A stretch of DNA of 64,000 nt from Alphaproteobacteria bacterium (GTDB lineage: Bacteria > Desulfobacterota > Binatia > UBA12015): contig JAFMJW010000002.1 in assembly GCA_017853315.1 (NCBI GenBank), positions 8,818 through 72,817 of the forward strand, read 5' to 3'. The translations under genes were made by a program, and so were the position numbers. The notes under the pieces were generated by a model. It did not search any database. It was not told where the DNA came from and saw nothing but the letters and a program-made list of their open reading frames with translations. Of this stretch, positions 49,169 through 59,220 are shown piece after piece; position 1 is the first letter of the stretch; every line of letters starts with the position of its first letter.

Positions 49169-49672
49169 TCAGGGAACGCGACGGATCGTCTCGCAGCTCG
49201 TGCTCGCGGTGTCCTCGAGCGTCTGGCCGCCGTTGCAGCGGTCGTCGCTGCCGCCACCGCCGAAGATTTCGTCGGCGCCGAAGCTGCCCTTCAGGACGTC
49301 GTTCTTCGGCCCGCCCTCGAGGTGGTCGTCGCCCTTGCCGCCGCGGATCAGGTCGGGGCCGTCGCCGCCGAACAGCCGATCGTGGCCGTTGCCGCCGAGG
49401 ATCGTGTCGGCGCCCTTGCCGCCGCAGATCGTGTCGTCCCCGCCGCCGCCCTTGATGTAGTCGTCGCCCTCCGCGCCGTAGATCACGTCCGCCTTGCTGG
49501 TGCCGACGATCGTGTCGTCGCCGGGGGTCCCGCAGATCGTCGGCTGCTTGCCGTCGCAGGTGGGCTCCGTGCCGTTGCACGGGTAGGGAGGCAGGTCGGC
49601 ACGGGCCGCCGTCGCGCAGGCGAGCAGGCCGGCTGCGGCGAGCAGAGCCGCGCGGGTGGGCCAGGGCTTCAT
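49169..49672 (-). CDS. Small secreted protein with hemolysin-type (RTX-like) calcium-binding repeats
   Basis: ATG 49672 is preceded by GGAGAA. The signal peptide is MKPWPTRAALLAAAGLLACATAARA. GGxGxD nonapeptide runs are present (GAEGDDYIKGGGGDDTICGGKGADTILGGNGHDRLFGGDGPDLIRGGKGDDHLEGG). Cys-containing caps flank the repeats. 167 aa. Confidence 0.75.
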   Translation of the reverse strand: MKPWPTRAALLAAAGLLACATAARADLPPYPCNGTEPTCDGKQPTICGTPGDDTIVGTSKADVIYGAEGDDYIKGGGGDDTICGGKGADTILGGNGHDRLFGGDGPDLIRGGKGDDHLEGGPKNDVLKGSFGADEIFGGGGSDDRCNGGQTLEDTASTSCETIRRVP

Positions 49673-49803
49673 GTCGTTCTCCATGTTCGACGGGACGGCG
49701 GCCCGAGGCTCCCGGGCCGGGTGTCGACCCCGCCGAGGAAACCATCCTCGCCAGCGGCGGTCAACCCGTGAAACTCGCCCGAAAAGCAGGCAGGCGCGGA
49801 GAA

Positions 49804-50610
49804 TCACTGCCAGCGCGTCATGAGCAGGGCCATTCCGACGCCGACCGCCACGATCGCCCGGCGCACCCAGCTCCGGGGCACGGCCCGGACCAGCGAGGCC
49901 CCGCCGAAGCCGCCGACCACCTGTCCGACGGTCATGATCGCGGCGACCGGCCAGTCGACCGCCCCGCCGCGGACGAACCAGGCGGCCGCGATGCCGTTGA
50001 TCACGGTCGCGAGACAGGTCCGCACCGCCATGCGCCGGTGGAGATCGCGCAGTCCCAGGATCCCGAGCGACGCGAGCATCATGATCCCGATGCCCGCCCC
50101 GAAGTAGCCGCCGTAGAGCGCGATCGGAAGCTGGAGAGCCGCGGCCCGCCACGGCGACCGCGGCGGCGGCTCGTCGACGCCGAGCGGCGACGGCGGCCGT
50201 GCTCCGTCGGAGAGGTGCACGAGGATCTCCTGGGCGGCGAACACTCCCGTCGCGAACAGGATGAGCGCGGGCACGAGCCGCACGAAGACCTTCTCCGGCG
50301 TCGCGAGCAGCAGGAACGCTCCGGCGAGGCCGCCCGCGAGCGACGGCAGCAGGAGCGCGCGCAACCAGGTGCGCGAGCGATCGATCTCGCCGCGGAACGG
50401 GACCATCGCCGCGATCGAGCCGGGAAAGATCGAGATCGTGTTGGTGCCGTTCGCGACGATCGGAGGCAGCCCCGCCCACACGAGCGCCGGAAAGGTGAGC
50501 AGCGAGCCGCCGCCGGCGAGCGCGTTGGTCGCACCGGCAGCGACGGCGACGAGAAAGAGCGCGACCGCGCGCGCCGCGGTCACGGACGCGACCCTTCCGA
50601 GGCGAGGCAC
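49804..50610 (-). CDS. TauE/SafE-family anion (sulfite-type) exporter
   Basis: 268 aa with 7-8 TM helices. Family segments: ATNALAGGGSLLTFPAL and GGYFGAGIGIMMLA. The exact start is uncertain. Confidence 0.8.
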   Translation of the reverse strand: MPRLGRVASVTAARAVALFLVAVAAGATNALAGGGSLLTFPALVWAGLPPIVANGTNTISIFPGSIAAMVPFRGEIDRSRTWLRALLLPSLAGGLAGAFLLLATPEKVFVRLVPALILFATGVFAAQEILVHLSDGARPPSPLGVDEPPPRSPWRAAALQLPIALYGGYFGAGIGIMMLASLGILGLRDLHRRMAVRTCLATVINGIAAAWFVRGGAVDWPVAAIMTVGQVVGGFGGASLVRAVPRSWVRRAIVAVGVGMALLMTRWQ

Positions 50611-50656: not shown

Positions 50657-51121
50657 TCAGCGCACGAGCTCCCATACCGGCAGCACGACGCGCTCGGTGA
50701 GCGGCTTGAACACGACGCGCACGCGCTTGCCGATCGCGACCTCGTCGGGCGTGCAGCCGACCATGTAGCCGACCAGCCGCGGCCCCTCGTCGAGCTCGAC
50801 CACCACCATCGCGAGCGGCAGCAGATCCTTGAACGCAGGCAGGAAGGGCTCGCGGCCGAGCACCCAGGTGTAGATCGTGCCGGTGCCCTTCGCGTCGACC
50901 CACTCGAGGCGGCCCCCGCCCTTCCAGGTCGCGGGCTTGGGCGGCCAGTGGAAGGCGCCGGTCTCGCGGTCGCGCTGGACGCGGAGACGCCGCTCGCGGC
51001 AGCCGTCCCAGAAGGGACGGGTGACCGGGTGGTCGACGTCGGGCAGCGGGTAGTCGGGGTGCAGGTCGCCGATCGGCCGATCGGGCCCGCCGCCGCTCTC
51101 GGGACGCCTCACCTCGCTCAT
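50657..51121 (-). CDS. DUF35 OB-fold protein (thiolase partner)
   Basis: 154 aa. The family start is PFWDGCRERRLRVQRD. The rubredoxin-like Cys residues are largely replaced. The OB-fold segment is GTIYTWVLG...MVVVELDEGPRLVGYMV. It lies 8 nt downstream of the thiolase-like gene. Confidence 0.8.
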   Translation of the reverse strand: MSEVRRPESGGGPDRPIGDLHPDYPLPDVDHPVTRPFWDGCRERRLRVQRDRETGAFHWPPKPATWKGGGRLEWVDAKGTGTIYTWVLGREPFLPAFKDLLPLAMVVVELDEGPRLVGYMVGCTPDEVAIGKRVRVVFKPLTERVVLPVWELVR

Positions 51122-51128
51122 CGCGCCC

Positions 51129-52319
51129 TCACTCCCCGCGCACGATCATCGCGCTGGTCGCGACGCCCGACGCCCCGGTGACGAGCACGTTGCGGCAGCC
51201 GGGGACCTGCGCGGTCGAGTCGCCCCGCACCTGGCGCACGGCCTCGAGGATCAGGTTGAAGCCGTGCACGTAGGCCTCCGAGAGACCGCCGCCCGAGGTG
51301 AGCGTCGGCAGCTCGCCGCCGAGCTCGAGGCGTCCGCCCTCGGTGAAGGGCCCGCCCTCGCCGGGCTTGCAGAAGCCGTAGTCCTCGAGGCCCATGATCA
51401 CGAGCGGCGTGAACGCGTCGTAGATCTGTGCGCAGTCGATGTCGGCGGGCTTCATCTCGGCGCGCGACCAGAGCTGCTGCGCACACGGCACCGCGGTCGT
51501 CTGCAGGTCGGGCGTGTTGTAGTTCGCGAGGTGCACCGGGTTCGGGCCCGACGCCTGCGCGACCGAGTGCACGAGCACGGGCTTGCGGCGCAGGTCGCGC
51601 GCGCGCTCGACCGAGGTGACGACGCAGGCGAGCGCGCCGTCGGTCTCGAGGCAGCAGTCGTAGAGCGTGAGCGGGTCGCTCACCGCGCGGCCGGCGAGGT
51701 AGGTCGCCATGTCGAGCGGACGGCCGTGCATCATCGCGCCCGGGTTGCGATTCGCATGCTTGCGCGCGGCGATCGCGACGTTGCCGAGCTGCTCGCGCGT
51801 GGTCCCGAAGCGGTGCATGTGGCGCTGCGCCCACATGCCGATCACGTCGACGGGCCGGATGAGCCCCCACGGCACGTGCAGCGCCTTGTCGTCGGCGACG
51901 AGCTCGCGCTCCTGCGCCCAGGGGCGCGACGCCTTCGATCCGCGGTTGCGGGCGCGGTGGCAGACCACCACCTCGGCGAGGCCGGTCGCGATCGCGGCGG
52001 CCGCGTGCATGATCGTCGCGCAGGAGGCGCCGCCGCCGTAGGAGATCTTGTCCCACCAGCGCAGGTTCCGGACGCCGAGACCGCGGGCGATCGTCACCTC
52101 GTGGGTGTGCTCCATCTCGAACATCGACATGCCGTCGACGTCCTCGGTCTCGAGCCCGGCGTCCTCGACCGCGAGCCGGATCGCGTCGATCGCGGTGTCG
52201 GAGATCGGACGCCCGATGTCCTTCGCAAACGGCAGCTGCCCGATGCCGACGATCGCGACGCGGTCGCGGATGCGACGGAAGAGGTCGCGGTCGATCGCGT
52301 CGGCGGCCATGCGACGCAC
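51129..52319 (-). CDS. Thiolase-like (Ltp/SCP-x-related) protein
   Basis: 396 aa. Family segments: VAIVGIGQLPFAKD and GGGASCATIMHAAAAIATG. It has the gene pairing with DUF35 typical of this family. The start may instead be the Met three codons downstream (52310). Confidence 0.85.
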   Translation of the reverse strand: MRRMAADAIDRDLFRRIRDRVAIVGIGQLPFAKDIGRPISDTAIDAIRLAVEDAGLETEDVDGMSMFEMEHTHEVTIARGLGVRNLRWWDKISYGGGASCATIMHAAAAIATGLAEVVVCHRARNRGSKASRPWAQERELVADDKALHVPWGLIRPVDVIGMWAQRHMHRFGTTREQLGNVAIAARKHANRNPGAMMHGRPLDMATYLAGRAVSDPLTLYDCCLETDGALACVVTSVERARDLRRKPVLVHSVAQASGPNPVHLANYNTPDLQTTAVPCAQQLWSRAEMKPADIDCAQIYDAFTPLVIMGLEDYGFCKPGEGGPFTEGGRLELGGELPTLTSGGGLSEAYVHGFNLILEAVRQVRGDSTAQVPGCRNVLVTGASGVATSAMIVRGE

Positions 52320-52532
52320 CTAGCGGATCGGGGTCCGGGGCGGTAGGCGCCGGCGGCCCGGAGCCGGGGGACGGCGACCGTGACGTCTTCGAGGGTCTCG
52401 GTCCGACCCGGCGAGGGGCACCGCCGCCCGGTCTCGACCTCCGGGACCTCGAAGGGGCCGGAGACGGGGCGGTGCCAGCGCGGAGCGATTCGGGCATTGT
52501 ACCCGGGGGGAGCCGGCGGTATTCCTGCCAAA

Positions 52533-55500
52533 GTGCGAACGAGGCCCGGCCTTCTCGCTTCCGTCGCCACGGCCTTCGCCGTCGCGATCCTCGCATCGGC
52601 GACCGCCCGCGCGGACGGGATCGACGACCTGAACGCGAGCTGGGTGGGCCGCGCGTTGCGCGCCCAGCGGCGCATCGACCTCGACACCCCGATCAGCGAC
52701 ACGAGTCTCGTCGGCGCGCACAACAGCTTCAACTCGGAGGCCTACGCGTCGGGCATCCGCTACCTCGACCCCAACCAGCGTCACTCGACCTTCGACCAGC
52801 TCCGCATGGGAGCCCGCGCGATCGAGTTCGACGTCCACTGGACGACGAAGAGGGACGGCCTGTCGTTCTCGAACCGACTCCTTCTCTGCCACGGCACGGC
52901 GAGCCACCTCGGCTGCGGACTCGACGACCGGACCTTCGAGGAGGGCCTCGACGAGATCGTCGCCTGGCTCGGGACCGCCGACTCGATCGGGCAGGTCCTG
53001 ATCCTGCACGTCGAGGACCACGTGGAGGGCCGGCACGGGGAGGCCTTCGCACGCGTCGCCGAGCGCCTGGGCGACCGCATCTGGGCAAGCGGCGGCTGCT
53101 CCGACATCCCCGCGAACCTGACGAAGTCCCAGGTGCTCGCCGCCGGCAAGCAGGTCATCGTCTGGAACGAGGGCGGCTGCAGCGGCGACGGCAACTGGAA
53201 CTCGATGGTGTTCACCGGCCTCGGTTCGATCACCCGGGTGTGGGAGGACTCGACCACGCTCGGCGGCGGCTCGGTCCCGCCGATCGGTTCCGGCGAGATC
53301 GCGAGTCTCCACGCATCCGGGATCAACCTGGTCGACCTCGACCAGCTCGATCCGGGCGACGGCCGGTGGGCGGCGGCCGTGTGGAGTTGGGCGGCGGGCG
53401 AGCCCAACGACCTCGGCGGCGAGGACTGTGCCGCCCAGCAGGCGGACGGCCGCTGGAACGACGTCGACTGCCGGCTCGAAAAGGCGTTCGCCTGCGAGAA
53501 CCTCGCGACCGGAGGCTGGGCGGTCACCTCGGAACAGGGCTCCTTCGGCCGTGGCGCGCTCGCCTGCCGGCGGCTCGGCCCCGACTTCCGCTTCGCCGTA
53601 CCCACCAACGCACAGGACAACCAGCTGCTCGCCGCAGCGCGCGCGGCGGCCGGCCGCTCCTCGGCGTGGCTCGCGCACGACGACCGGGACGTCGAGGGGG
53701 ACTGGCGGATCCGCAGCGGCGACGACCTCTTCTGGGACCGGGGCGGGCTGGTCCTCGATGCGGGCGCGTCCGTGCGAGGCGCGAGCCGCATGCTGCGCAT
53801 GGAGCCGAACTGCAACCTCGTGCTCTACTCGCTCGACGGAGACGAGGTCGGCCGCGGGCTTTGGACGAGCGGCACGGCGAACCTCGGCGTGAACTGCCGC
53901 GCGGAGTTCGGATCCGACGGCATCCTCGCGGTCCGCGACGGTGCGGGCCGCGCGCTCTGGAACTCGGGTGCGGGCGGAACCGAACTCGTCCTGCAGTCCG
54001 ACGGCAACCTGGTCCTCTACGACGACGGCCGGGTCGCCCGCTGGTCGACGTTCACGAACGCGGGCGACGAGGCGACCTTCGAGGCAGGCCGGTTCACGCT
54101 CACCCCGGGGCAACGCGTCGGGACCCGGAGTCTCGAACTCGCGCTGACCGTCGACGGCAACCTCGTCGTCTCCAGCGTCGACAACGGTTTCGTCGGCGGC
54201 GTTCTCTGGCGCAGCGGCACGACGGGCCCGGGGGGGCGCGCGGAGTTCCAGTCCGACGGCAACCTCGTCGTCTACGACGGCGCGGGCCGGGCGCTCTGGG
54301 CCGCGGGGACGTCCGGGACCGCGAACGCGACGCTTCGACTGCAATCGGACGGCAACGTCGCGATCTACAACGGCGCCGGAGAGCCCCTCTGGTCGACGAT
54401 GACGAACACGCCCGCGCAGGCGGTCCTTCGCGCCGGGCAGTTCGCCCTCGACCGAGGGGACTGGGTCCAGACCCGCAGCCGGAAGCTCGAACTGACCGCG
54501 ACCTGCGACCTCGTGCTGTCGAGCGTCGACAACGCGGTGGTCGGCGGCGCGCTCTGGCGCAGCGGCACCTCGGCCTCGAGCTGCCGCGCCGACTTCCAGG
54601 CCGACGGGAACTTCGTCCTCTACGACGGCGAGGGGCACGCGCTCTGGGCCGCGGGAACCTCCGGCACGGCCAACGCCGAGCTCCGCATCCAGCCGGACGG
54701 CAACGTCGTCGTCTACAACGGCGCGGGCGAGCCGCTCTGGACGACGCAGACCCGCCTGCCGACCGAGTCCTCGTTCCTCGCGGGACGGTTCGCGCTCACG
54801 CCCGGGCAGTTCGTCCTGCAGGCGAATCGTTTCCTCGAGCTGCGCGACGACTGCCAGCTGGTCCTCCACTCGCTCGTGAACGGCGCGCGCGGGCTCCGGG
54901 TGTGGGACTCGAACACCGCGGGAGCCGGCACGAACTGCCGGCTCGACTTCCAGTCCGACGGCAACCTCGTCCTCTACGACGGGTCCGGACGATCGCTCTG
55001 GGCGGCCGGCACCTCGGGGACGACGGGCGCGGTGTTCCGCATCCAGTCCGACGGGAACATGGTGATCTACAACGGCGCGGGCGAGCCCCTGTGGACGAGC
55101 CAGACCCCCGGGAACTTCTCGGAGGTCGCCGTGTGCGGGGATGCGACGTGCAACGGGTCCGAGGCCTGCGGCTCCTGCGCATCCGATTGCGGTGCGTGCC
55201 CGCCGTCCTGCGACTGCGGCGACGGCGTGGTCGAACCGTCGTGCGGCGAGCAGTGCGACGACGCAGCCGCGCCCGGCGGCTGCTGCTCCGCCGACTGCCG
55301 GATCGAGCCGGCCGGGACCGCGTGCAGGGCCGCGGCCGGCGACTGCGACGTCGCGGAAGCCTGCGACGGGACCTCGGCCACCTGCCCGCAGGACCGCGTG
55401 GCGGGCGCGGGGTTCCCGTGTCGGCCGGCGGACGGTGCCTGCGACCTCGTGGAGAGCTGCGACGGAGCGTCGACCGCCTGCCCGCAGGACCGGGTCGCGG

Positions 55501-56327
55501 GCGCCGGGGTTGCCTGTCGGCCCGCGCAGGACGCCTGCGACGCGGCCGAGAACTGCGACGGCTCGGGCAAGGGCTGCCCGGCGGACGCTCCCGCGCCCGA
55601 CGGCACGCCGTGCGACGACGGGCAGGCCTGCACGATCCTCGACGCGTGCTCCGGCGGATCCTGCGGCGGCGACCCGATCACCTGCGGCGACGGAAGCCTG
55701 CAGGCCGCGTGCGGGGAGCAGTGCGACGACGGCGGACGCGAGCCCGGGGACGGCTGCGACGCGTCCTGCCGGGTCGAGATCTGCCCGGCGAGCCCGCGCA
55801 CGGATTGCGTCGAGGCCGCGCGGGTCAAGTTCCAGTTCCTCGAGCGGAGTGCCGGCCGGGAGCAGATGAAGGTCGAGTGGAAGGGCTTCTCGGACGACAC
55901 GACGGCCGCCGGGTTCGGCGATCCCGTCTCGGGCGCGAACTCGGTGGCCCTCTGCCTCTACGGCGATGCCGGCGAGCTCGTGCAGCGACTGGAAGTCGAC
56001 CGCGGCGGCGAGCGTTGCGCCGGGGCTCCGTGCTGGCAGGGACTCGGCTCGAGCGGCTTCCGGTACAAGGACGGCAGCGCGAGCGCGTCGGGCGTGCAGC
56101 AGCTCGACTTCGTCGCGGGCGACGCCGGTCGCGGCAAGGCCTCCGCCAAGGGCCGCAACGATGCCGGCAAGGGGATGACGTCGCTGCCGACCGGCGTCGC
56201 CTTCCGGCTCTACGGCGAGTCCCACCCGACCCTGCAGCTCGCGACCGAGCACGGGTTCTGCCTGTCCGCGAAGGTCACGACGATCCTGCTGGCCGACAAG
56301 AAGCAGTACAAGGCCGAGCGCCGCTGA
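52533..56327 (+). CDS. Secreted multidomain protein: PLC-like phosphodiesterase, C-type lectin module, 4 bulb-type (B-) lectin domains, Cys-rich/disintegrin-like repeats, C-terminal beta domain
   Basis: The preferred start is GTG 52533 (xRTRPGLLASVATAFAVAILASATARA/DG); TTG 52497 and GTG 52380 are alternatives. Domain evidence: LVGAHNSFN; WAAGEPNDLGGEDCAAQQADGRWNDVDC..FACE; seven Q-x-D-x-N-x-V/A-x-Y motifs; CGDGVVEPSCGEQCDD; 3 CRxxxGxCDxxExCDGxSxxCPxD units. Confidence 0.8.
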   Translation: MRTRPGLLASVATAFAVAILASATARADGIDDLNASWVGRALRAQRRIDLDTPISDTSLVGAHNSFNSEAYASGIRYLDPNQRHSTFDQLRMGARAIEFDVHWTTKRDGLSFSNRLLLCHGTASHLGCGLDDRTFEEGLDEIVAWLGTADSIGQVLILHVEDHVEGRHGEAFARVAERLGDRIWASGGCSDIPANLTKSQVLAAGKQVIVWNEGGCSGDGNWNSMVFTGLGSITRVWEDSTTLGGGSVPPIGSGEIASLHASGINLVDLDQLDPGDGRWAAAVWSWAAGEPNDLGGEDCAAQQADGRWNDVDCRLEKAFACENLATGGWAVTSEQGSFGRGALACRRLGPDFRFAVPTNAQDNQLLAAARAAAGRSSAWLAHDDRDVEGDWRIRSGDDLFWDRGGLVLDAGASVRGASRMLRMEPNCNLVLYSLDGDEVGRGLWTSGTANLGVNCRAEFGSDGILAVRDGAGRALWNSGAGGTELVLQSDGNLVLYDDGRVARWSTFTNAGDEATFEAGRFTLTPGQRVGTRSLELALTVDGNLVVSSVDNGFVGGVLWRSGTTGPGGRAEFQSDGNLVVYDGAGRALWAAGTSGTANATLRLQSDGNVAIYNGAGEPLWSTMTNTPAQAVLRAGQFALDRGDWVQTRSRKLELTATCDLVLSSVDNAVVGGALWRSGTSASSCRADFQADGNFVLYDGEGHALWAAGTSGTANAELRIQPDGNVVVYNGAGEPLWTTQTRLPTESSFLAGRFALTPGQFVLQANRFLELRDDCQLVLHSLVNGARGLRVWDSNTAGAGTNCRLDFQSDGNLVLYDGSGRSLWAAGTSGTTGAVFRIQSDGNMVIYNGAGEPLWTSQTPGNFSEVAVCGDATCNGSEACGSCASDCGACPPSCDCGDGVVEPSCGEQCDDAAAPGGCCSADCRIEPAGTACRAAAGDCDVAEACDGTSATCPQDRVAGAGFPCRPADGACDLVESCDGASTACPQDRVAGAGVACRPAQDACDAAENCDGSGKGCPADAPAPDGTPCDDGQACTILDACSGGSCGGDPITCGDGSLQAACGEQCDDGGREPGDGCDASCRVEICPASPRTDCVEAARVKFQFLERSAGREQMKVEWKGFSDDTTAAGFGDPVSGANSVALCLYGDAGELVQRLEVDRGGERCAGAPCWQGLGSSGFRYKDGSASASGVQQLDFVAGDAGRGKASAKGRNDAGKGMTSLPTGVAFRLYGESHPTLQLATEHGFCLSAKVTTILLADKKQYKAERR
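53721..55105 (+). repeat. Four tandem ~115-aa bulb-type lectin modules (protein-level repeat inside the CDS)
   Basis: Each module has three subrepeats. Examples: ..NCNLVLYS / ..SDGILAVRD / LQSDGNLVLYD; LTVDGNLVVSS / FQSDGNLVVYD / LQSDGNVAIYN; LTATCDLVLSS / FQADGNFVLYD / IQPDGNVVVYN; LRDDCQLVLHS / FQSDGNLVLYD / IQSDGNMVIYN. Confidence 0.8.
55323..55610 (+). repeat. 3 x 96-bp in-frame tandem repeat (32-aa disintegrin-like Cys unit)
   Basis: The three units are CRAAAGDCDVAEACDGTSATCPQDRVAGAGFP, CRPADGACDLVESCDGASTACPQDRVAGAGVA and CRPAQDACDAAENCDGSGKGCPADAPAPDGTP. Confidence 0.8.
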
Positions 56328-56412: not shown

Positions 56413-59220
56413 ATGGTCGAGGCGCGCCTGGAGAAGACGTCGGGCAACGGTTCGGTCCCGGGCCGGGTCGTCCGCGCGGTCGTGGCGGCGGCGCTGGCAC
56501 TCGCGATGGCGGTCGCGCCGCGCGAGGCTCGGGCCGCAGTCGTGTTCCAGGACTCGACCGGCACCGTCACGAACCAGAACAACACGATCGGCGGCAGCTC
56601 CTACAGCTCCGACTGGTTCGTGCCGTCGACCCCCGCGCTCGGCTTCATGCTGATGGAGCACGGCTTCTCGCGCGGCTGCGGCAACATCCGGGACACCGGG
56701 CTCGCGATCATGCGGCAGGGGCTCGTCGTCCTCTGCATCAACGCGAGCATGCAGGGTGGCAACCCGTCCTTCGGCGTCACGGTCGGCGACGCGATCGCGG
56801 ACGGAGCCCTCGTCCCGCCGGCCGGAACGGTCGTCCCGGCCGCGACGATCGTCGGCGGCCACTCGGCGGGAGGTCACTTCGCGACCGAGGTCGGCAAGCG
56901 CCTCGTCCAGCGCGGCTTCGCGACGCTGAAGGGCGCGATCCTGTTCGACCCGGTCTCGGCGAGCGGCTTCTCCGAGAACGTCGTCGCGATCTCCGCGGGC
57001 GCGACGCGCCCCGTCCTCTCGGTGACCGCGAACTCGTCGGCTTGCAATTCGTCCAACAACAGCGCGCCGGCGCTCGCCGGTCTCCCGAACTCGTTCGTCG
57101 GCCTGAAGCTCACCAACGGCAGCCTTCACACCGACGTCGAGGGCACCAACTCCGACTTCCTCGGGACGCTCGCCTGCGGCACCCCGCAGGCCGCGAACAC
57201 GACCGCGCTGCGGACCCTCGCCGCGGCCTGGGCCGGCGACATCGTGCGCGGGACGCGGACGAGCGCCTACTACGAGTACGGCACCTACACGAGCGGCCTG
57301 ATCTCCCAGAACCGCGCGACCCCGATCAAGGCACTGCCGGATTGCGGCAACGGCAGCCTGGACGCGGGCGAGGCCTGCGACCTCGGTGCCGCGAGCAACG
57401 GTGCCGACGGCGCGTGCTGCGCGATCGATTGCAGCTTCGCAGCCGCGGCGACGGTCTGCCGCGCTGCGGCGGGAGCCTGCGACGTCGCCGAGGCCTGCAC
57501 CGGTGCGTCCGACGCCTGTCCGGCCGACGGGTTCGCCGATGCGGGCACGACCTGCCGCATCGCGAACGGCGCGTGCGACGTCGCCGAGGCCTGCAACGGA
57601 ACGTCCGCCGCCTGCCCCACGGACGGGTTCGTCGCCGCGGGTACCACCTGCCGCACCGCGAACGGCGACTGCGACGCCGCCGAGGCGTGCAACGGAACGT
57701 CCGCCGCCTGCCCCGCGGACGTGTTCCTCGCCGCGGGCACGACCTGCCGGGTCGCGAGCGACGCATGCGACGCACCGGAGGCCTGTACCGGGACCTCCGC
57801 GGGTTGTCCGGTCGACCAGTTCGTCGCCGCGGGCACGTCGTGCCGGGCGGCGACCGCCGCCTGCGACGTCGCCGAGGCCTGCACCGGCTCTTCCGCCGCC
57901 TGCCCCGCCGACGGCGTCGCAGGCGCAGGCACCGCGTGCCGTGCCGCGAGCGGCACCTGCGACGCGGCCGAGATCTGCGACGGCTCGGGCAAGGACTGCC
58001 CCGCAAACGGCTTCGCGGCGGCGGGCACCGTCTGCCGCGCGGCGACCGGTCCCTGCGACGTCGCCGAGGTGTGCTCGGGTGCGAGCAACACCTGCCCCGC
58101 CGACGGACTCGCGACCTCCGGGACCACCTGTCGCGCGGCCGCCGGCCCCTGCGACCTCGCCGAGGCCTGCACCGGCTCGTCGGCGGCCTGCCCGGGCGAC
58201 GTCCGACAGCCGGCCGGCGTGACCTGTCGTCCGGCGTCCGACGCCTGCGACATCGCCGAGTCCTGCACCGGCTCCTCGGCCGCGTGCCCCGCCGACGTCT
58301 ACCGTCCGGCGGGAACGCCCTGCCGTCCGGCCGCGGGCGTCTGCGACGCGATCGACGCGTGCACCGGCTCGTCCGCGGCCTGCCCCGCCGACGGAAAGAA
58401 GACCTCGGTCTGCCGCACGGCGAGCGACGTCTGCGACGCACCCGAGTCCTGCGACGGGGTCGCGGACGACTGCCCGACCGACCTGGTCGCGAGCGCGGGC
58501 GCGGTGTGCCGCGAGGTCGGCGACGCCTGCGACGTCGCCGAGTCCTGCGACGGGTCGTCGAAGGCCTGCCCGACCGACACCGGACTCCCCGATGCCGACC
58601 AGGACGGCACCTGCGACGCCGAGGACACGTGCCCCGCTTCGGCCGATCCGCTCCAGGCCGACGCCGACGGCGACGGGCGAGGCGACGCCTGCGACGAGTG
58701 CACCGTGATGCCCGGCGGGGCGATCGCCAAGACGGCCCTGAAACTGTCGGGCTTCGGCACGCCCGCGGGCGACGACAAGGTCACGTTCAAGGGCGAGGCG
58801 TTCATGCCGACGAACCCGGCGCTCGATCCCGCGACCCACGGCGTCCGGGTCCTCGTGTACGACGAGACGGCGCACCTGTGGGGCTCGGCGGCCATCGCCG
58901 ACCTGTCGGTGCCGTCGGGAGCATGGTCCGCAGCGACCGGCTCGGGCTGGGTCGCCTCGACCTCGGGCTGGACCTGGAAGGCGCCGCGCCTGCCGACCGG
59001 CAAGACCGGCGTCGCGAAGGTGAGCCTGCGGCGGATCGCGGCCGGACGCTGGTCGTTCTCGATCACGACCAAGGACTCGAGCTTCGACCTCCCCGCGACC
59101 GGCGGCCCGCTCGTCGCGGCGGTCGTGTTCGCGCCCCCGGGTGCGGCCGTCGGCTCGTGCGCGGAGATCCGTCCCGCCTGCAAGTGGGACACGCTGCTGC
59201 GCTCCGTGTCCTGCCGCTGA
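56413..59220 (+). CDS. Secreted multidomain protein: alpha/beta hydrolase (lipase/cutinase/chlorophyllase-like), 12 disintegrin-like Cys repeats, TSP3-like Ca-binding repeats, C-terminal beta domain
   Basis: 935 aa. The signal peptide is [23 protein letters not shown]. The nucleophile elbow is [25 protein letters not shown] segment precedes the 12 units of CRxxxxxCDxAExCxGxSxxCPxD. The TSP3-like stretch is [15 protein letters not shown]...[14 protein letters not shown]. Confidence 0.8.
57457..58602 (+). repeat. 12 x ~96-bp in-frame tandem repeat (32-aa disintegrin-like Cys unit; unit 10 is 30 aa)
   Basis: The units begin at TGC 57457 and recur every 96 bp. Examples are [32 protein letters not shown] and [32 protein letters not shown]. 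The last unit ([24 protein letters not shown]) begins at 58507. Confidence 0.85.

Follow-up and report, generated by a model that had tools for sequence, protein, structure and literature searches.

A single open reading frame of the 64,000-nucleotide window, the whole stretch of DNA analysed here, encodes a 1264-residue protein, predicted to be secreted (positions 52533–56327, + strand). In it, a PI-PLC-type phosphodiesterase barrel is followed by a C-type lectin-like domain (CTLD) which, on profile alignment and predicted structure, is complete but circularly permuted, with its EPN/WND half leading. Four B-lectin domains, a Cys-rich stalk and a C-terminal all-beta domain make up the remainder. 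Its most likely role is that of a glycan-targeted phosphodiesterase that depends on Ca2+ and cleaves either glycosylated inositol-phospholipids or polymers of sugar phosphates, a substrate class that we infer.

The gene and its phosphodiesterase barrel

The reading frame is a genuine coding gene; its GC3 of 0.93 is typical of coding sequence in a window of 72% GC. It begins with a GTG start codon and a Sec-type signal peptide (52533..52613, + strand; aa 1–27, VRTRPGLLASVATAFAVAILASATARA, with cleavage before DG), assigned by reading the sequence and by comparison with orthologues. The mature sequence is conserved from ‘ADGIDD’ onward, after the A-x-A site, in all orthologues. In 27 of 27 the conserved region opens with A/G-D-G/E-I-D-D after a hydrophobic stretch and A-x-A, in agreement with the signal peptide claimed in a first-pass annotation of the sequence. 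An alternative, longer GTG start at 52380 (database entry P0001) would add 51 residues, which are unconserved. An extracellular location is suggested by the signal peptide together with the abundance of Cys: two conserved pairs lie in the barrel and 35 residues in the stalk.

The first module (52614..53378, + strand; aa 28–282) is a PLC-like (PI-PLC X-type) TIM-barrel phosphodiesterase domain. As a single sequence it falls below the threshold of the PI-PLC-X model PF00388 (E = 0.07; 13.2 bits against 23.1), but the PLC-like barrel proposed in the first-pass annotation is upheld on other grounds. A profile built from 29 family sequences matches the Listeria PI-PLC 1aod (E = 2.6e-6, 30 bits), pairing GTHN with GTHD and LLLCHG with LNIYHG/IVLHHG, and PF00388 itself is matched by 48 of 89 representatives of the wider family (best 4e-9). 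An AlphaFold model of the barrel and CTLD was obtained with a pLDDT of 81.9 and a pTM of 0.82; a Foldseek search of the PDB gave 43 significant matches, all of them PI-PLCs, among them PLC-beta3 (4.8e-7), B. cereus 1t6m (1.9e-6) and the Ca2+-dependent Pseudomonas enzyme 5fyr (1.3e-5). On these profile and model comparisons, the PI-PLC type of the barrel can be taken as established.

H63 and H120 are put forward as the catalytic residues, with N64, E98, D100 and E161 as putative Ca2+ ligands; four further conserved residues, C119, C128, C189 and C216, make up the two Cys pairs. When aligned by hhalign with rat PLC-delta1, the sequence of which was verified beforehand, the HN pair corresponds to H311/N312, the ExD motif to E341/D343 and E161 to E390. 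Of 29 diverse relatives, all keep H63, N64, D100 and H120, 28 keep E98 and 26 keep E161. This conservation argues that the active site is live and under selection.

A circularly permuted C-type lectin domain

The CTLD (53379..53747, + strand; aa 283–405) consists of two halves in exchanged positions. The C-terminal half, WSWAAGEPND..EDC..GRWNDVDC..FACE, is placed first (53379–53498, + strand; aa 283–322), and the N-terminal half, comprising beta1, alpha1, alpha2 and the ‘WLAHDD’ beta2, is placed second (53499–53747, + strand; aa 323–405). The Lectin_C model PF00059 (cutoff 22.6) scores 22.1 bits over the full protein and 29.7 once the piece is excised, matching at model positions 71–106 only. 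The first-pass annotation had reported a C-type-lectin long-loop region carrying EPN-type ligands; the ligands stand, whereas the long-loop region proves to be part of a whole domain in permuted order. Residues 83–122 of collectin-11/SP-D align with positions 262–301 of the family profile and residues 15–74 with positions 312–373, reversing their order. When the halves were re-joined in silico, Lectin_C matched end-to-end (positions 4–106 of 107, 35–36 bits), against positions 73–106 only and 29 bits in the native order; re-joined P0028 matched nearly end-to-end (positions 5–106) and re-joined P0007 at positions 22–106. The AlphaFold model shows the order beta3-beta4-beta5-beta1-alpha1-alpha2-beta2, with a pLDDT for this block of mostly 83–96. 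No circularly permuted CTLD was found in the literature searched.

All five ligands of Ca2+ site 2 (E290, N292, E297, N309 and D310) and all four canonical Cys are retained. EPN or QPD, together with xND, is the pattern of sugar-binding CTLDs. The EPN, E and WND elements are invariant or nearly so across the 28-member subfamily; in the wider family EPN occurs in 52 of 140 members, co-occurring with xND, and QPD in seven. The EPN/WND ligands have been lost from many wider-family members, mostly those of 440–520 aa, and sugar binding by the CTLD is therefore dispensable to the family.

Accessory modules and the wider family

Four tandem B-lectin (bulb-type/MMBL, beta-prism II) domains follow (53748..55112, + strand; approximately aa 406–512, 513–627, 628–743 and 744–860), scoring 85.3 bits against PF01453 (cutoff 32.4). 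Seven of their 12 subsites had been credited with mannose-binding motifs; six carry an exact QxDxNxVxY (aa 488, 573, 689, 720, 807 and 838) and the seventh, at aa 604, the near-exact QxDxNxAxY, with V replaced by A. Sequence matches in the PDB include the SCAfet lectin 1dlp (4.5e-20), putidacin L1 3m7h (5.7e-18) and the snowdrop and garlic lectins.

The Cys-rich stalk (55113..55778, + strand; aa 861–1082) contains the unit CGDxxCNGxExCxxCxxDCGxC, two myxo-type cysteine-rich acidic repeats (approximately aa 893–925 and 1050–1082) and three disintegrin-loop-like repeats (approximately aa 926–1020). The Myxococcus-type and disintegrin-like repeats reported earlier both exceed their cutoffs: TIGR02232 (myxo_disulf_rpt) gives 28.1 bits against 20.8 at aa 1050–1082, and Disintegrin PF00200 (cutoff 35.1) gives 37.7 bits over the full protein and 47.8 once the piece is excised, as three stretches that each cover model positions 47–75 only. 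PDB sequence matches of the stalk are to ADAM and snake-venom disintegrin-like domains (9.5e-6 to 4e-4). All four module assignments of the first-pass annotation are therefore supported by profile searches, the AlphaFold model and Foldseek, although in the Pfam/TIGR02232 scan PI-PLC-X stayed below its cutoff and Lectin_C passed on the excised piece only, while B_lectin, Disintegrin and TIGR02232 passed theirs; the annotated junctions at about 53.35, 53.72 and 55.1 kb agree with the domain borders derived here (53379, 53748 and 55113).

The C-terminal domain, with the stop codon, occupies 55779..56327 (+ strand; aa 1083–1264). It is predicted by AlphaFold as an all-beta fold of 14 strands (pLDDT 95.6, pTM 0.90), with no match in Pfam or NCBIfam and none in the PDB by Foldseek at E<=0.001 (best E = 0.033, TM-scores of 0.35 or lower). 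It is kept in P0004–P0008 and also ends the otherwise different proteins P0035–P0043, always at the extreme C-terminus and with Y-K-A-x-K/R-K/R as its last residues. Most orthologues terminate instead in ‘VPxLS + hydrophobic helix + basic’, a PEP-CTERM-like transmembrane anchor recognised by eye, with one weak NCBIfam match (E = 0.006). In P0002, which is 81% identical, the tail is that of the neighbouring gene (37% identity, 6e-54). Comparison of the orthologues thus indicates that tails are swapped between them as modules.

Approximately 28 orthologue clusters were found, from MAGs mostly labelled Myxococcota. The core of PLC barrel and permuted CTLD is common to more than 800 representative protein clusters and is found in Microbulbifer, Shewanella, Chitinimonas and Actinomycetota. 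Core-only relatives of approximately 410–520 aa consist of a signal peptide, the barrel and the permuted CTLD; many of them, 410–480 aa in length, stop directly past the ‘VWLNY..EG.W’ strand. The core is thus an ancient, fixed two-domain unit and not an ad hoc fusion. Accessory modules among 89 representatives were Ricin_B (11), B_lectin (5), Jacalin (4), F5/8C (2) and Tectonin (2). The core is already labelled in Pfam: precomputed annotation assigns PF26178 (Rv2075c_cat)/PF26146 (PI-PLC_X) to the close orthologues P0018, P0022, P0024, P0025 and P0027, to the core-only P0099 and to many of 191 matches. Through these accessions of its relatives, the protein is placed in a large uncharacterised bacterial family that includes Rv2075c of Mycobacterium tuberculosis, on which the literature found is in silico work only. 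The relatives found carry no functional annotation, all being ‘hypothetical’ or named by domain; the earlier statement that the architecture matches no characterised protein holds in this respect, but the existence of so many orthologue clusters shows that it is not unique.

Proposed role and relation to known systems

In the account that we favour, with moderate confidence, the protein is an exported, disulfide-rich enzyme of the PI-PLC superfamily, of a ‘Rv2075c-like’ family, in which the CTLD guides cleavage of a glycosylated head group and the B-lectins supply avidity. After Sec export, the TIM barrel would act through the acid/base pair H63/H120 and a Ca2+ cage of N64, E98, D100 and E161. 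The permuted CTLD, its EPN/WND Ca2+-sugar site intact, would read the sugar adjoining the scissile bond, and the core would cut a phosphodiester beside a free hydroxyl by the usual intramolecular attack of PLCs, yielding a cyclic phosphate. Glycosyl-inositol-phospholipids would be the likeliest substrates, with GPI anchors, phosphatidylinositol mannosides and (M)IPC/GIPC sphingolipids as examples. The four B-lectins, with their seven mannose-type sites, may provide multivalent avidity for mannose-rich surfaces, while the stalk and C-terminal beta domain would form a spacer and localisation module. Since the tails of orthologues are replaced by a transmembrane PEP-CTERM-like anchor, the enzyme probably stays on or close to the surface of its producer and there attacks foreign glycoconjugates, either to feed or to prey; the anchors speak for an enzyme of the cell surface and against a toxin set free. 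With the catalytic residues intact and lectin sites present, the membrane-attacking exoprotein directed at prey, fungal or host surfaces that was first suggested would be plausible.

The recurrent fusion of carbohydrate-binding modules across the family speaks for a glycan-targeted enzyme, and it also fits a possible, though distinctly less probable, account in which the barrel is no lipase and cuts diester bridges formed by sugar or polyol phosphates, in polymers of the wall or in soluble ones (phosphomannans, teichoic-acid-like polymers, phosphorylated capsular or algal polysaccharides), for nutrient scavenging. All the lectin modules would then serve as CBMs do in CAZymes; modules of CBM type recur in the family as jacalin, ricin B, B-lectin and F5/8 type C. 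Among the PLC-like superfamily are GDPD enzymes, whose glycerophosphodiester substrates are not lipids, and the family's marine genera Microbulbifer, Chitinimonas and Shewanella are polysaccharide-degrading. P0007 has a sulfatase on one side and a GH5 cellulase on the other, and the vicinity of P0028 includes GH2, GH4 and a sugar transporter; these neighbourhoods fit glycan scavenging as well as predation, and they point to polysaccharide use over lipid attack, counting against a lipid substrate. However, no neighbourhood was found to be conserved across genera, the nearest relatives, by structure and by sequence, are without exception PI-PLCs that act on lipids rather than GDPDs, and no phosphoglycan-specific feature was identified in the protein.

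The B-lectins could also be taken to indicate an antibacterial lectin-like bacteriocin that binds the LPS sugars and BamA of competitors, as LlpA and pyocin L1 do, with the PLC as its killing module. Putidacin L1, pyocin L1 and pyocin L2 are among the PDB matches (5.7e-18 to 2.6e-11), and the NCBIfam LLB_putidacin (LlpA) model scores 234 bits over seven stretches; this is below its cutoff of 275, however, and generic MMBL homology suffices to explain it. LlpAs do without an immunity gene (PMC6465234), and none is evident adjoining this gene. LlpA consists of two B-lectin domains and a short C-terminal extension (PMC6240691), whereas the four B-lectins here lie inside a 1264-aa protein with 400 residues beyond them, so that no LlpA-type C-terminal peptide is free. 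Orthologues are, moreover, mostly membrane-anchored, and the B-lectins are accessory to the conserved PLC and CTLD core, making a bacteriocin improbable. About as improbable is a non-catalytic adhesin that displays lectins in an array at the surface, with the PLC-like barrel as a degenerate scaffold: eight potential sugar-binding sites, the stalk-like region and the anchor-type tails would suit it, and Rv2075c has been treated simply as a lectin (PMC6334816), but retention of the six catalytic and Ca2+ residues in 26–29 of 29 diverse relatives is unexpected in a dead scaffold. An assembly chimera or frameshift artefact joining unrelated genes has only the unusual length and domain mix in its favour, and its probability is negligible. 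It is refuted by end-to-end orthologues in independent MAGs (L006, 80% identical over aa 8–1264; L009, 49% over aa 3–1264; P0004, P0006, P0007 and P0008, 51–59% identity at 98–100% query coverage), and neither GC nor GC3 changes at the junctions.

The favoured enzyme shares its TIM barrel with the eukaryotic PLC X-box (rat PLC-delta1, PDB 1qas/1djx), and its HN...ExD...HG...E order is that of PLC-delta1 (H311/N312, E341/D343, H356, E390), but the PH, EF and C2 domains of eukaryotic PLC are absent. Its fold is also that of the bacterial Ca2+-dependent PI-PLCs (Pseudomonas sp. 5fyr and Streptomyces antibioticus 3h4w; PF00388, PF16670). The Ca2+-independent PI-PLCs of Bacillus and Listeria have Arg where this barrel has acidic residues, and Ca2+ dependence is therefore to be expected here. 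Sequence similarity to known PI-PLCs is marginal; unlike them, the barrel is short (approximately 255 aa), carries an additional beta-hairpin after the ExD strand and before the second His, contains two conserved disulfide pairs and is always followed by the permuted CTLD.

With CRDs of the collectin/DC-SIGN type (PF00059, EPN mannose/GlcNAc type), the CTLD shares EPN...E...WND, the four canonical Cys and a WIGL-like beta2. It differs in being permuted, with new termini within a long-loop region that is partly truncated, and in its fusion to an enzyme barrel. Tandem beta-prism II MMBL domains with QxDxNxVxY are common to this protein, LlpA/putidacin L1, pyocin L1 and the plant bulb-type (GNA) lectins, and it has been remarked in a general way that bacterial MMBL domains may be fused to other domains (PMC6240691). 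LlpA-type bacteriocins, however, have two such domains and a C-terminal extension, whereas this protein has four, embedded in a much larger enzyme, and lacks the extension. In Rv2075c, only a 36-aa stretch (aa 393–428 of 487) has been recognised as C-type lectin (PMC6334816), the same partial match signature as is seen here; beyond the core of the Rv2075c family, the present protein adds four B-lectins, a Cys-rich stalk and a novel beta domain.

The gene and its phospholipase C-like barrel

The reading frame ending at position 56327 on the forward strand has a GC3 of 0.93, as expected of a real gene in the window; GC content around the locus is 70–77%, and there is no compositional break across the frame. 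The longest ORF call starts at a GTG at 52380 and yields 1315 aa, while a start at the GTG at 52533 yields a 1264-aa product with a signal peptide-like N-terminus (basic, hydrophobic, A-x-A). The start at 52533 is preferred, because the conserved sequence of all orthologues opens at ‘ADGIDD’ directly after such a peptide. A scan for promoters and terminators at the locus found none, which is uninformative at 72% GC. HMM scans, a fold model and family profiles bore out and sharpened the domain observations of the first-pass annotation; the HMM scans confirmed outright three of its four module types (C-type lectin, B-lectin and the disintegrin-like and myxo-type Cys repeats).

The PLC-like barrel (aa 28–282) is identified by structure and by family profiles. 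Its sequence does not reach the gathering score of the Pfam PI-PLC-X model PF00388 (13.2 bits for the N-terminal 255 aa, against a cutoff of 23.1; E=0.07). Neither this single-sequence search nor a 14-sequence profile run against PDB sequences (E=0.29) is strong enough as stand-alone evidence. Relatives from the wider family reach PF00388 at E=4e-9. An AlphaFold model of aa 27–412, built with 28 orthologues as input (pLDDT 81.9, pTM 0.82), gave 43 Foldseek matches in the PDB at E ≤ 0.001. All are PI-PLCs with the distorted TIM-barrel, each at probability 1.00, and they span eukaryotic enzymes (PLC-beta, -epsilon and -zeta) and bacterial ones (Bacillus, Staphylococcus, Listeria and the Ca2+-dependent Pseudomonas enzyme). 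A broader profile of 29 diverse relatives matches Listeria PI-PLC at E=2.6e-6; it places ‘GTHN’ on the catalytic ‘GTHD’ and ‘LLLCHG’, which carries the second catalytic histidine, on ‘LNIYHG’ of Listeria and ‘IVLHHG’ of B. cereus. In an hhalign comparison with the X-box of rat PLC-delta1, H63/N64 fall on H311/N312, E98/D100 on E341/D343, and E161 on E390, the positions of the general base and Ca2+ ligands of the rat enzyme. The rat sequence used was checked against 1qas. The second histidine is left unaligned in this comparison owing to a hairpin insert, and is placed by the 29-sequence profile alignments. Since the fold model with its Foldseek matches, the 29-sequence profile and the alignment to PLC-delta1 are three independent lines, the PLC assignment is regarded as settled.

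The two predicted catalytic histidines, H63 and H120 (general base and general acid), are invariant in all 29 relatives. The predicted Ca2+ ligands N64, E98, D100 and E161 are kept in 26–29 of the 29, as are four cysteines of the barrel. Because of this conservation the domain looks like a live, Ca2+-dependent and disulfide-stabilised enzyme, and therefore an extracellular one. As judged from sequence, the core of the family is a PI-PLC-type enzyme with a complete set of predicted catalytic and Ca2+-binding residues.

A circularly permuted C-type lectin-like domain

The segment following the barrel (aa 283–405) matches the Lectin_C model PF00059 over only the last third of the model, with 22.1 bits in the whole protein and 29.7 bits as an excised piece (cutoff 22.6). 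This ‘partial’ match is in fact a whole C-type lectin-like domain (CTLD) in circularly permuted order. Against PDB sequences, the family profile matched collectin-11, SP-D, DC-SIGN and tetranectin in two pieces whose order is swapped: profile positions 262–301 correspond to the last third of a CTLD (EPN...WND...FxCE), and positions 312–373 to its N-terminal half (beta1, alpha1, alpha2 and the WIGL-type beta2). The permutation was tested by placing aa 323–402 in silico before aa 283/290–322 and scoring the product against Lectin_C. The re-ordered sequence covers positions 4–106 of the 107 in the model at 35–36 bits (cutoff 22.6), whereas the native order covers positions 73–106 only, at 29 bits. 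Two orthologues re-joined likewise behave similarly, P0028 matching almost end to end (positions 5–106) and P0007 over most of the model (positions 22–106). The order of secondary structure elements in the AlphaFold model (beta3, beta4, beta5, beta1, alpha1, beta, alpha2, beta2) is predicted with high confidence and agrees with the permutation. It is only as a circular permutant that the segment forms a full-length CTLD with the four canonical cysteines, all of which lie within aa 283–405.

The five predicted ligands of Ca2+ site 2 are all present (E290-P-N292, E297, W308-N-D310), and the E, P, N, E, W and D of this putative site are invariant in the 28-sequence subfamily. Among 140 aligned representatives of the wider family, the tripeptide reads EPN in 52, usually with xND, and QPD, the galactose-type motif, in seven; the others are degenerate at this position (EPS, EPG, QPA and others) and lack ND. 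By this distribution, some lineages seem to have diversified the predicted sugar specificity of the CTLD and others to have lost it. No account of a permuted CTLD turned up in a search of the literature; the domain is a clear case of circular permutation in nature, in a lectin fold that ranks among the best studied.

Lectin array, tail and gene neighbourhood

Four B-lectin domains (approximately aa 406–860) follow the CTLD, matching PF01453 at 85.3 bits (cutoff 32.4). The first-pass count of seven mannose-binding motifs among their twelve subsites was reproduced by a regular expression, as six exact QxDxNxVxY motifs and one with V replaced by A. The Cys-rich stalk (aa 861–1082) scores above the cutoff of 35.1 for the disintegrin model PF00200, with 37.7 bits in the whole protein and 47.8 bits as an excised piece. 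Each of its three matching stretches spans only positions 47–75 of the 75 in the model, so these are disintegrin-loop repeats and not whole domains. Beside the three copies lie two myxo-type cysteine-rich acidic repeats, one of which (aa 1050–1082) matches TIGR02232 at 28.1 bits against a cutoff of 20.8.

The last 182 residues (55779–56324, forward strand) form an all-beta domain, modelled at a pLDDT of 95.6 and ending in YKAxKK. It has no match in Pfam or NCBIfam, no fold match in the PDB by Foldseek (best E 0.03) and no homology detectable by hhalign with the tail of the adjacent downstream gene (probability 0.3%). Wherever it recurs, it sits at the very C-terminal end of secreted proteins that otherwise differ and are Cys-rich or contain PKD (P0035–P0043); it may represent a sorting or anchoring module that has so far escaped recognition. 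Tails are interchangeable among the orthologues and take three forms. In most members (P0009–P0028) the protein ends in ‘VP-x-L-S/T’, about 20 hydrophobic residues and an Arg/Lys-rich terminus, which by inspection looks like a PEP-CTERM/exosortase sorting signal; NCBIfam models returned a single weak match on these anchors (midcut_by_XrtH, E=0.006). Five members share the beta domain of the window protein. The third form is found in P0002, an orthologue of 1231 aa that is 81% identical to the window protein through the enzyme and lectin part and has a different tail, homologous to that of the neighbouring gene (58300–59217; 37% identity, E=6e-54). At the level of sequence similarity, the P0002 tail argues that secreted proteins exchange their C-terminal tails in the manner of cassettes. 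The tail would thus be a localisation or display cassette and not a part of the catalytic machinery.

That neighbouring gene (56413–59220, forward strand) lies 86 bp downstream and encodes a secreted-looking protein of 935 aa. Its N-terminus is alpha/beta-hydrolase-like, with a GHSAGG motif and a weak Abhydrolase_3 match (E=4e-4), and behind it come 12 disintegrin-like repeats (247 bits), an Asp-rich stretch resembling thrombospondin type 3, and a C-terminal domain of its own. It shares with the window protein the design of enzyme, Cys-rich stalk and tail. The remaining neighbourhood is one of ordinary metabolism (thiolase, ChsH2-like OB-fold, TauE, SDR, acyl-CoA ligases). Immediately upstream on the reverse strand (50657–52319) lies a divergently oriented pair, made up of a thiolase-like protein (Thiolase_C_1, 124 bits) and a ChsH2-type OB-fold/zinc-ribbon protein. 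It resembles a pair for the degradation of steroid or lipid side chains and seems to have no connection with the lectin-bearing protein. Approximately 2.5 kb upstream, also on the reverse strand (49169–49990), a small secreted-looking protein carries RTX-type Ca2+-binding nonapeptide repeats (HemolysinCabind, 90.6 bits). An all-against-all comparison of ORFs at 39 loci found no conserved neighbour common to different genera. On the 192-kb metagenomic contig L001 (7500–15310), P0007 has a sulfatase gene on its upstream side and a GH5 cellulase-family gene on its downstream side, the three sharing one strand; this setting, absent from the window, is a hint of polysaccharide utilisation.

Proposed function and relation to known proteins

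The first-pass annotation proposed a glycan-targeted, membrane-attacking exoprotein, a reading which is reasonable but unproven. We count as established at the level of sequence a predicted secretion signal, an intact set of PLC catalytic and Ca2+ residues, an intact EPN-type CTLD site in a fixed place beside the barrel, seven B-lectin sites of the mannose type, and a tail of modular make-up. The enzyme would act at or near the surface of its producer, where multivalent lectin binding may enrich it on foreign surfaces or polymers that are rich in mannose. The core would then cleave, by a PLC mechanism, a phosphodiester adjoining a glycosylated head group. Glycosyl-inositol-phospholipids (GPI anchors, inositol-phosphoceramides and PIMs) are the favoured candidate substrates, because every structural relative is a PI-PLC. 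If the substrate is a lipid of the GPI, GIPC or PIM type, the family would bear on predation among microbes, on the turnover of marine glycolipids and on the biology of the mycobacterial envelope.

The main rival to a lipid substrate is a non-lipid phosphoglycan. It is favoured by the CBM-like decoration of family members, by the polysaccharide-degrading habit of their hosts and by two CAZyme-rich neighbourhoods, neighbourhoods being otherwise unconserved; the exclusively PI-PLC relatives of the barrel point to the glycosyl-inositol-phospholipids. Three further readings are unlikely. The B-lectin domains are similar to those of plant bulb lectins and of LlpA-type bacteriocins, and the protein could be taken for such a bacteriocin; its score against the NCBIfam LlpA model NF033557, 234.4 bits, is below the cutoff of 275. 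Its architecture also differs from that of LlpA as defined in PMC6240691, in that four domains have 405 residues on their N-terminal side and 404 on their C-terminal side. A pure adhesin would make use of the lectin sites, and the barrel beside them retains its predicted catalytic residues. A chimera produced by misassembly is excluded, since two independent MAG contigs encode end-to-end orthologues (80% identity over aa 8–1264 and 49% over aa 3–1264).

Within the glycosyl-inositol-phospholipid reading, a bolder version seems to us rather improbable. Here, barrel and permuted CTLD would form one composite active site, in which the lectin Ca2+/EPN site holds the sugar on the inositol or phosphate while the barrel cuts the adjacent phosphodiester. 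The family would then constitute a new class of phospholipase C, one that reads glycans and is specific for glyco-inositol-phospholipids. Rv2075c of M. tuberculosis would act on PIM/LM/LAM; for the Myxococcota enzymes the targets would be the GPI or GIPC lipids of prey, either eukaryotic or actinobacterial. The CTLD would also be the first case in nature of a circular permutant of its fold.

The architecture had seemed to be without counterpart, a claim that fails on the breadth of the family. A word-indexed search found approximately 28 orthologue clusters at 50–85% identity, several covering 98–100% of the query; they come from metagenomes and MAGs mostly labelled Myxococcota, and all are annotated as ‘hypothetical’. 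With the PLC domain alone, an exhaustive HMMER search retrieved 842 representative clusters at E ≤ 1e-3, 177 of them at E ≤ 1e-30. The family thus exceeds 800 clusters at 50% identity, from Proteobacteria, Actinomycetota, Myxococcota and others. The consensus of the 140 aligned representatives includes the permuted CTLD, and many family proteins of 410–480 aa stop exactly at the last strand of this domain. This core occurs in cultured Microbulbifer, Marinomonas, Shewanella, Bacterioplanes, Chitinimonas, Pseudomonas and Leptospira as well as in Actinomycetota MAGs. Scanning 89 representatives identified PI-PLC-X in 48 and Lectin_C in 33, together with Ricin_B (11), B_lectin (5), Jacalin (4), FRG1/fascin (4), Tectonin (2) and F5/8C (2); sugar-binding modules have been added to the core again and again. 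What was a vague annotation of the family becomes a testable hypothesis of a glycan-directed phosphodiesterase, with concrete mutants and candidate substrates. The most interesting findings of the analysis are the permutation of the CTLD and the fixed PLC–CTLD core.

Precomputed annotation assigns PF26178 ‘Rv2075c_cat’ and PF26146 ‘PI-PLC_X’ to orthologues 51–53% identical to the window protein and to relatives of the core; the database entry of the window protein itself (P0001) is without them. The literature searched yielded no paper on a bacterial PI-PLC fused to a C-type lectin and, in its open part, no functional study of Rv2075c, which is discussed there only as a putative ‘C-type lectin’. 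The family, on which that literature reports no experimental work, is very large, and the window protein is an elaborate representative of it. In silico, only aa 393–428 of Rv2075c matched a CTLD (PMC6334816); judged by this published range, it is the same partial signature that permutation explains in the window protein. The locus is therefore a new architectural variant of a widespread, database-recognised and experimentally untouched PLC–lectin family, to which Rv2075c has lent its name.
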